This document shows positions 51,480 to 54,400 of a DNA stretch of 64,000 nt, in pieces. Made by a program: the position numbers. Position 1 is the first letter of the stretch. Each line of letters begins with the position of its first letter. The stretch is from the NCBI RefSeq assembly GCF_045037415.1, contig NZ_CP173438.1; one strand, 5' to 3'. This stretch comes from Escherichia coli. GTDB taxonomy: Bacteria; Pseudomonadota; Gammaproteobacteria; Enterobacterales; Enterobacteriaceae.

Positions 51480-54400
51480 TAGTTTGTACACCGTCCGGCA
51501 CTCAATCGCCAAAAGAAAAAAGCCAGCAGATAATCACTGCTGGCGTGGCGATTAACACCAATACTCAGTCACACATGATGTCCGCAAATCAGTAGTCAGA
51601 ATGACTCCCCTCCCATTGCATCAGTTCTTCAAGCATGGTTAATCGTTGTGGGACGCTTAACCAACGCAACCAGCACAACTTCGCTGTCGCGGTAAAATAG
51701 TGCTGATAAAACTGACGCATGGGGCACCTCCTTGCTTCATCGTTAGGAATTATTGACTTAATATAGGGAAAATAAAATTGCTGTCTTTTGCGCAGGAGTT
51801 CCCCTTTTATGCCATCTGCTCGTCTGCAACAACAGTTCATCCGCCTGTGGCAATGCTGCGAGGGTAAATCTCAGGAGACCACGCTCAACGAACTGGCAGC
51901 GTTACTGAGTTGCTCGCGTCGTCATATGCGCACCCTGCTCAACACCATGCAGGATCGCGGCTGGCTGACGTGGGAAGCGGAAGTCGGGCGCGGTAAACGC
52001 TCGCGTCTGACATTCCTCTATACCGGGCTGGCGCTTCAGCAACAGCGAGCGGAAGACCTGCTGGAGCAGGATCGTATCGACCAACTAGTGCAGTTGGTTG
52101 GCGACAAAGCGACTGTGCGGCAAATGCTGGTTTCTCATCTGGGCCGCAGCTTCCGCCAGGGGCGGCACATCCTGCGCGTGCTCTACTATCGTCCGTTGCG
52201 TAATCTGCTACCTGGCAGCGCATTGCGCCGTTCTGAAACCCATATCGCCCGGCAAATCTTCAGTTCGCTAACGCGCATAAATGAGGAAAATGGGGAACTG
52301 GAAGCAGACATCGCACACCACTGGCAGCAAATATCACCGCTTCACTGGCGTTTCTTTTTGCGTCCAGGAGTCCATTTTCACCATGGTCGTGAACTGGAAA
52401 TGGACGATGTGATCGCCTCTTTAAAACGAATCAATACGCTTCCGCTCTATTCGCATATTGCTGACATTGTGTCGCCGACGCCCTGGACGCTGGATATCCA
52501 TCTCACGCAACCGGACCGCTGGTTGCCGTTACTGCTGGGGCAAGTTCCGGCAATGATCCTGCCGCGCGAATGGGAAACCCTCAGTAACTTTGCCAGCCAT
52601 CCCATCGGCACCGGTCCGTATGCGGTGATCCGCAACAGCACCAATCAACTGAAAATTCAGGCATTCGATGACTTCTTCGGTTACCGGGCATTAATCGACG
52701 AAGTTAACGTCTGGGTTCTAACGGAAATTGCCGACGAGCCAGCCGGAGGGCTGATGCTGAAAGGGCCGCAGGGCGAGGAACAAGAGATTGAAAGCCGCCT
52801 GGAGGAAGGTTGCTATTATTTACTGTTCGACAACCGCACCCACCGCGGGGCGAATCAGCAAGTCAGGGACTGGGTAAGCTATGTGCTTTCTCCGACGAAT
52901 CTGGTCTATTTCGCCGAGGAACAATACCAGCAACTCTGGTTCCCGGCTTATGGACTGCTCCCCCGCTGGCACCATGCCCGCCCGACACATTGCGAAAAAC
53001 CCGCCGGGCTGGAACATCTCACCCTGACCTTTTATCAGGATCATATTGAACATCGAGTGATTGCCGGGATCATGCAGCAGATTCTGGCGAGTCACCAGGT
53101 CACGCTGGAAATCAAAGAGATCAGCTACGATCAGTGGCATGAAGGAGAGATCGAGAGCGATATCTGGCTTAACAGCGCCAACTTTACGCTGCCGCTGGAT
53201 TTTTCGCTGTTCGCGCACTTGTGCGAGGTGCCGCTACTCCAACACTGTATTCCGATCGACTGGCAAGCCGACGCCGCCCGCTGGCGCAATGGCGAAATGA
53301 ACCTGGCGAACTGGTGCCAGCAACTGGTCGCCAGCAAAGCAATGGTGCCACTTATCCACCACTGGCTGATCATTCAGGGGCAACGCAGTATGCGCGGCCT
53401 GCGCATGAACACCCTCGGCTGGTTCGATTTTAAATCAGCGTGGTTTGCACCACCGGATCCATGATTGCTGGTTGATAACAAAATCACTACACTAACGCCG
53501 TTCTCAACGGGGTGCCACGCAGCCGCGTGCGCTGAGAAAATACCCGTCGAACCTGATCCGGATAACGCCGGCGAAGGGATTTGAGGCTCCTTCTCAAGTC
53601 CTTTGCCACTCTTTTGTGAGGTGCAAAGTGTTAAAAAAATGTCTTCCCCTGCTGTTGCTGTGCACAGCGCCTGTTTTCGCTAAACCTGTTCTGACTGTTT
53701 ATACCTACGATTCCTTTGCCGCTGACTGGGGACCTGGTCCGGTAGTCAAAAAAGCCTTTGAAGCAGACTGTAATTGCGAACTGAAACTGGTGGCGCTGGA
53801 AGATGGCGTTTCGCTGCTCAACCGTCTACGGATGGAAGGCAAAAACAGCAAAGCCGATGTGGTGCTGGGGCTGGATAACAACCTGCTGGACGCCGCCAGC
53901 AAAACCGGGTTGTTTGCCAAAAGCGGCGTCGCGACAGAGGCTGTAAACGTTCCCGGCGGCTGGAAAAATGACACCTTTGTGCCGTTTGACTATGGCTATT
54001 TCGCCTTCGTCTATGACAAGAACAAACTGAAAAATCCGCCGCAAAGCCTGAAAGAACTGGTTGAGAGCGATCAAAACTGGCGGGTGATTTATGAAGATCC
54101 GCGTACCAGTACACCAGGTCTGGGTCTGTTGCTATGGATGCAAAAAGTCTATGGCGATAACGCCCCGCAAGCCTGGCAGAAACTGGCGAAGAAAACTGTC
54201 ACGGTCACTAAAGGCTGGAGCGAAGCCTACGGCCTGTTTTTAAAAGGCGAAAGCGATCTGGTACTGAGTTACACCACCTCTCCGGCTTATCACATTCTCG
54301 AAGAGAAGAAAGATAACTACGCCGCCGCGAACTTCAGCGAAGGTCACTATCTGCAGGTGGAAGTTGCCGCCCGCACCGCTGCCAGCAAGCAGCCAGAGCT

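Follow-up and report, generated by a model that had tools for sequence, protein, structure and literature searches.

The question raised by the sgrS locus in this stretch of Escherichia coli DNA (64,000 nucleotides (nt) of contig NZ_CP173438.1 in RefSeq assembly GCF_045037415.1, hereafter the window) is why the efflux gene setA is missing from beside the small RNA gene sgrS, and whether that state is a recent loss, an old one or the original condition. The K-12 record gives the order sgrR, sgrS/sgrT, setA, leuD, as the first-pass annotation of the window had stated, and two papers (PMC4509938, PMC9765468), each citing Sun & Vanderpool 2011, likewise bear out its statement that sgrS and setA are co-transcribed in K-12. 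We hold with good confidence that the window carries an intact, functional-looking sgrR-sgrS/sgrT haplotype without setA, that setA was deleted once, early in the history of Escherichia, and that E. coli phylogroups A and B1 later re-acquired it.

The absence of setA, which the first-pass annotation had noted, applies to the whole window: K-12 SetA found nothing by tblastn better than an E-value of 0.6, and the K-12 setA region gave 0 blastn matches. In the K-12-type operon setA, a major facilitator superfamily efflux gene, lies ~27 nt past the sgrS terminator and is expressed by read-through, an arrangement that is not found here. Instead, sgrS (minus strand, 51515-51741) is separated from the leuD stop codon (51480-51482) by a spacer of 32 nt (51483-51514) that constitutes the setA deletion junction. 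The earlier estimate of a gap of ~30 base pairs (bp) was therefore sound, although the end of the terminator had been put at about 51513 and the U-tract in fact ends at 51515. The spacer holds no setA remnant, and a short-word blast search with it for a remnant or microhomology matched only the homologous spacers of other setA-less Escherichia; its sgrS-proximal ~20 nt, and only that part, resemble the sgrS-setA spacer of Citrobacter. As far as the sequence goes, the deletion is clean, with the leuD stop codon on one side and the sgrS terminator on the other.

A survey of 5426 complete RefSeq E. coli genomes showed that this junction is common. It is present in 2157 genomes, and the window-type sgrS 3' 101 nt is likewise found in 2157 (2155 of them at an identity of at least 99%), with K-12 setA present in 3241 genomes and the K-12-type sgrS 3' 101 nt in 3242. 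The two sgrS-allele counts total 5399, which equals the count of genomes matching the locus at all, and setA has a single place in nearly every genome. No intermediates between the haplotypes and no relocated setA in setA-less genomes were found in this survey, which also answers the possibility, raised with the original observation, that setA had simply moved elsewhere. E. coli has two sharply distinct haplotypes at a ratio of ~60:40, with the indel and the sgrS 3' allele in essentially complete linkage. Individual checks confirmed the lack of setA in CFT073, IAI39, 042 and O157:H7, and O55:H7, Nissle, NRG 857C and the porcine strains ETEC6334 and ETEC6335 are among the setA-less matches; the setA-bearing references are K-12, BLR(DE3) and IAI1. 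We take CFT073 to belong to phylogroup B2, IAI39 to F, 042 to D, O157:H7 to E, BLR(DE3) to A and IAI1 to B1. On the accepted phylogeny the setA-bearing groups A, B1 and Shigella make up the crown clade of E. coli, with setA lacking in B2, F, D, E and the sister species.

The ancestral state for the family was read from one genome per GTDB species, scanned with SgrR as the query, which gave 80 Enterobacteriaceae loci. In 77 of these, which include Salmonella enterica subsp. arizonae and diarizonae as well as Citrobacter, Enterobacter, Klebsiella, Raoultella, Kluyvera, Leclercia, Lelliottia, Trabulsiella, Atlantibacter, Buttiauxella and other genera, sgrS is directly followed by a SetA homologue (75-99% amino-acid identity). 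Only three loci depart from this, each from Escherichia (E. albertii, E. whittamii and Escherichia sp. E1V33), and their junction is the same as that of the window. Because setA follows sgrS in 77/80 loci, the sgrS-setA arrangement is ancestral for the family and the state of the window is a deletion. The first-pass annotation had spoken of a lineage-specific remodelling; the deletion relative to the family stands, but a state shared by 2157 of 5426 E. coli genomes and by sister species is not peculiar to one lineage. Identity of the spacer to that of the window falls from 32/33 in IAI39, 31/33 in 042 and 30/33 in O157 to 29/33 in E. whittamii and E1V33 and 27/33 in E. albertii, and this decay with phylogenetic distance fits a single old deletion that would have been inherited vertically since before the split of E. 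coli and E. albertii.

The sgrS gene of S. Typhimurium is listed with yabN (sgrR) and leuD as its flanks (PMC3384567), and as the arizonae and diarizonae loci keep setA, the Typhimurium loss is a separate, independent one. In Trabulsiella odontotermitis (locus L038, 4591-5653) SetA was recovered in two tblastn pieces (residues 1-86 and 115-392) with overlapping locus coordinates; setA may be disrupted in this species, which would be another route to the loss of SetA.

For E. coli itself, lack of setA is probably the ancestral condition, with setA regained by A/B1 through recombination, as judged from the identity of the sequences on either side of the indel. The sgrS 3' 110 nt of the window share 96.8% identity with E. 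albertii and E. whittamii but 73% with K-12, whereas over the sgrS 5' half and sgrR the window and K-12 are 97.6% identical and either is ~88% identical to E. albertii. On the other side of the indel the last ~200 bp of leuD are unusually divergent (88% between window and K-12). The encoded C-terminus, ...KQPAFMR* in the window, ends in AFMR in the window, in other setA-less Escherichia, in Citrobacter and in Salmonella, and in AFMN in K-12 and Escherichia sp. MOD1-EC7003. The latter strain, on which a literature search found nothing, is the only one with setA among the non-coli Escherichia compared, and its identity to K-12, ~94% in the background, rises to 98.5% in setA and to 100% in the sgrS 3' end. 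Since the identity of this tract exceeds the background, the setA tract has moved between lineages. The donor was neither Citrobacter nor Salmonella, given that K-12 setA is only 76-78% identical to theirs at the DNA level.

The sequence of events we propose is that setA would have been deleted once, early in the genus, and the deletion inherited by E. albertii, E. whittamii, E1V33 and E. coli B2/D/E/F. The A/B1 stem would then have regained the gene by homologous recombination over a tract of ~1.6 kb comprising the leuD 3' end, setA and the sgrS 3' end, with a setA-retaining Escherichia lineage as the most likely donor. A SetA protein search for E. fergusonii or other intermediate homologues yielded none of use among the matches listed, which were filled by near-identical E. 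coli sequences.

Several points weigh against this reconstruction. The K-12-type sgrS tail is partly Salmonella-like and the window-type tail partly Citrobacter-like and, because each resembles other genera, both forms are old and polarity is not readable from the tails. The sharing of tails across genera may reflect old polymorphism, inter-genus exchange or convergence. Every comparison shows a variable leuD 3' end, and the boundary of the tract is blurred as a result. The sample is without E. fergusonii, E. marmotae and E. ruysiae, which bears on the timing of the deletion and on the donor of the K-12-type tract, and the phylogroups and their branching order, including the A/B1 crown, are taken from established knowledge. 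Finally, the function of the locus is inferred from its conservation.

Among the alternatives, the one that survives best, although we regard it as unlikely, is that setA was inherited vertically by the ancestors of A/B1 and that a deletion allele arising in one Escherichia lineage was spread by homologous recombination to E. albertii, E. whittamii, E1V33 and E. coli B2/D/E/F. Species that share only 88-92% identity in the neighbouring sgrR do have window-type sgrS 3' ends that are 96.8-100% identical, and the locus is visibly mosaic; however, function (seed and terminator) accounts for how well the sgrS 3' end is conserved, the 32-nt spacer, which is presumably neutral, loses identity as species distance grows (32/33 to 27/33), as vertical descent predicts, and many transfers would be needed where re-acquisition needs one. 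Less probable again, and in our view rather doubtful, is that the two haplotypes represent a long-lived trans-species polymorphism under selection, in which the SgrT C-terminus and the terminator would have co-adapted with SetA or with its loss, and in which the difference would contribute to a sugar-stress physiology that sets A/B1 commensals apart from B2/D/E/F lineages. The hypothesis that setA is an insertion of the K-12 lineage, which an absence of setA from Salmonella LT2 would suggest, was refuted by the 77/80 loci. The broader form of that idea, in which setA is a foreign insertion of the K-12/Shigella lineage and its absence ancestral for the whole family, can draw on the S. Typhimurium flanks (yabN (sgrR) and leuD; PMC3384567) but is very improbable in the face of those 77 loci and of the separate nature of the Typhimurium loss. 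A recent strain-specific deletion, an assembly artefact or a relocation of setA has nothing in its favour beyond the bare absence in the window and is scarcely credible given an identical junction in 2157 complete genomes and counts of setA and K-12-type sgrS (3241 and 3242) that leave at most a handful of genomes in which setA could lie apart from the locus.

The sgrS gene of the window differs from that of K-12 in a strongly clustered manner. The 227-nt gene is of the CFT073 type (the 'type II' allele) and matches the Rfam SgrS family (RF00534) over the full model (positions 1-232) with 226.2 bits and E = 2e-64 against a gathering score of 37. Its identity to K-12 sgrS is 88.6%, with 27 differing alignment positions, of which nt 1-130 hold 3, nt 131-161 hold 14 and nt 187-227 hold 10; nt 162-187 are unchanged. 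The earlier view that the 3' halves of sgrS and sgrT are divergent and the seed retained was thus borne out by the alignment. The divergent block (nt 131-161; minus strand, 51581-51611) takes in the sgrT stop codon with the 7 codons before it, as well as the pre-seed spacer, and here it is the allele of the window, not that of K-12, which matches Citrobacter and Salmonella (TGGGAGG..., TTGCGGACATCATG). The unchanged 26-nt segment (CATCATGTGTGACTGAGTATTGGTGT; minus strand, 51555-51580) is the seed for base-pairing with ptsG and other targets, and it contains the invariant pairing motif CUGAGUAUUGGUG, of which a 13-nt consensus has been published (PMC2760817).

The differences in nt 187-227 fall in the seed-to-terminator spacer, the terminator loop and the U-tract. 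The Rho-independent terminator and Hfq-binding module (minus strand, 51515-51544, from a terminator scan and the Rfam structure line) includes a stem-loop at 51522-51544 with an 8-bp GC-rich stem (GCCAGCAG/CUGCUGGC) and a 7-nt loop, followed by UUUUUUC, so that the U-run is 6 in the window as against 8 in K-12. The predicted folds of the two RNAs are alike (z = -3.9 for the window). The seed-to-terminator tail in the form seen in the window (UUAAUCGCCACGCCAGCAG, 51515-51554) matches several Citrobacter, and that of K-12 (AAAAUCACCCGCCAGCAG) agrees, except for a 12-nt hairpin insert, with Salmonella and Citrobacter sp. R56. We also considered whether the changes to the terminator, an extra G-C pair and a shorter U-run, might be an adaptation to the loss of setA, and rejected this because setA-bearing Citrobacter share the same terminator type.

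The embedded sgrT open reading frame (minus strand, 51589-51720, ATG start intact) encodes a 43-residue inhibitor of the PtsG glucose transporter, MRQFYQHYFTATAKLCWLRWLSVPQRLTMLEELMQWEGSHSDY, which ends in ...EELMQWEGSHSDY where the K-12 protein ends in ...EGLMQWDDRNSES. Seven of the 43 residues differ from K-12, 6 of them within the last 8. The protein matches the Pfam SgrT family (PF15894) over residues 3-37 with E = 2.8e-13, the divergent residues 38-43 lying outside the matched core, and no NCBIfam model matched it. In SK1144, which is near-identical to the window (5 mismatches in 50,000 positions compared), the gene at the corresponding position is RefSeq WP_001248768.1, 'glucose uptake inhibitor SgrT', an accession that is also annotated in CFT073 and IAI39. 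At sgrS nt 13 (51729) the sgrT leader reads GGAGG in the window and GGGGG in K-12. The stem-loop (GGGGGUGCCCC) that masks the sgrT ribosome-binding site has been described as peculiar to K-12 and two other strains (PMC2760817), and with GGAGG in place of GGGGG this K-12-only structure is lost from the window. If this stem-loop acts as published for K-12 (PMC2760817), translation of SgrT is probably more efficient in the strain of the window than in K-12.

Parts of this locus have been described before. Horler & Vanderpool 2009 (PMC2760817) reported 88% identity between K-12 SgrS and its counterparts in CFT073 and O157:H7, a distinct SgrT variant in CFT073 (EcCFT SgrT) and the loss of the sgrT start codon in O157:H7; Figure 2 of that paper places setA on the synteny map of each genome. 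The setA-less haplotype with its SgrS/SgrT allele is an already known, RefSeq-annotated and very common polymorphism. CFT073 is the closest counterpart, with an identical SgrT translation and an sgrS that differs at 3/227 nt but, unlike the window, with an IS200C transposase gene in the sgrS-leuD spacer (locus L086, 12078-12536). The CFT073/O157:H7 type and the window alike lack the K-12 masking stem-loop, whereas the sgrT start is ATT in O157:H7 and ATG in the window; in the O157:H7 genome YB14-1 the frame with this ATG to ATT change (locus L003, 3845) is still annotated as SgrT, WP_001248768.1. K-12 resembles the window in sgrR, the promoter region, the sgrS 5' 130 nt, the seed and the overall predicted fold, and departs from it in possessing setA, and with it an SgrR-dependent read-through product for an efflux pump, as well as in the pre-seed spacer, the C-terminal end of sgrT, the loop of the terminator and the U-tract. 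S. Typhimurium is like the window in that sgrS is listed directly between sgrR (yabN) and leuD without setA (PMC3384567), although the Salmonella SgrS has a different sgrT (40 amino acids) and a longer spacer between seed and terminator (PMC2760817).

With the promoter, ribosome-binding site, sgrT frame, seed and terminator all intact, we infer that the locus is functional, an impression with which the conservation of its sgrS allele at 99% or more in 2155 genomes sits well. By analogy with K-12, SgrR would activate sgrS, SgrS, held by Hfq at its terminator and U-tail, would use the unchanged seed to pair with ptsG and other mRNAs, and SgrT would block PtsG. SetA is not made, because its gene has been deleted, and the expected outcome is a two-armed response of RNA pairing and SgrT without SetA, whose role in K-12 has been described as real but elusive (PMC4021124). 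A terminator scan of 51483-51560 found no plus-strand terminator-like site after leuD, the hairpin of the K-12 leuD-setA spacer (GCCCGGTCAAATGACCGGGC) being gone; leuABCD transcripts may read antisense across sgrS/sgrT, and read-through of the sgrS terminator would run antisense into leuD and not into setA.

On a practical level, K-12 is unrepresentative of E. coli at the sgrS locus, as ~40% of complete genomes are without SetA, including the uropathogenic, enterohaemorrhagic and enteroaggregative references CFT073, O157:H7 and 042 and the probiotic Nissle. Conclusions drawn in K-12 on the SetA arm and on weak SgrT translation should not be transferred to the setA-less strains, because these lack SetA and have the GGAGG leader; their SgrT C-terminus differs as well. 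The importance of the locus is otherwise limited. The complete linkage of the indel with its flanking alleles illustrates neatly how an indel can preserve ancient divergence right beside it, but as a pattern this is general and well understood.

Upstream of sgrS, the activator gene sgrR (plus strand, 51809-53464; NCBIfam SgrR equivalog NF010149, 1120 bits against a cut-off of 476) starts 67 nt away on the opposite strand. The intervening region (51742-51808), identified by comparison with K-12 as the divergent sgrR-sgrS promoter and SgrR-binding region, is the same as in K-12 at 66/67 nt and contains a promoter-like site for sgrS at 51787-51760. The sgrR 3' third (52700-53300) is mosaic: the window stands apart from K-12, O157 and CFT073 in alignment columns 900-1300 (85-95% per 100 nt), and in columns 1300-1500 it is K-12 that differs from all setA-less strains (82-88%). 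This mosaicism suggests repeated recombination across the locus. Downstream of sgrR follow a thiamine pyrophosphate (TPP) riboswitch (53498-53597) and thiB. The espY2 gene, which encodes a type III secretion system effector, is inserted between sgrR and this riboswitch in O157:H7 (locus L003, 5821-6390), IAI39 (L085, 16289-16858) and 042 (L088, 7759-8328); the insert is not in the window, CFT073, K-12 or IAI1. On the other flank leuC (plus strand, 49466-50866) precedes leuD (plus strand, 50877-51482), the open reading frame for the 3-isopropylmalate dehydratase small subunit (NCBIfam equivalog TIGR00171, 343.9 bits).

Two further regions of the window carry inserted or variable genes. By the SK1144 annotation, the pdhR-aroP interval (4213-8376) contains a 1782-bp tssD encoding a type VI secretion system Hcp protein that is extended at length at its C-terminus. 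Behind it, four genes annotated as 'bacteriocin immunity protein' are interspersed in alternation with three small hypothetical genes. Between yabI and araC (57941-63113) lies a five-gene island with genes for a TctA/TctB/TctC tripartite tricarboxylate transporter, a dihydrodipicolinate-synthase-family protein and a PfkB kinase; the island is not at this site in IAI1 or 042, and CFT073 and IAI39 carry different inserts there.

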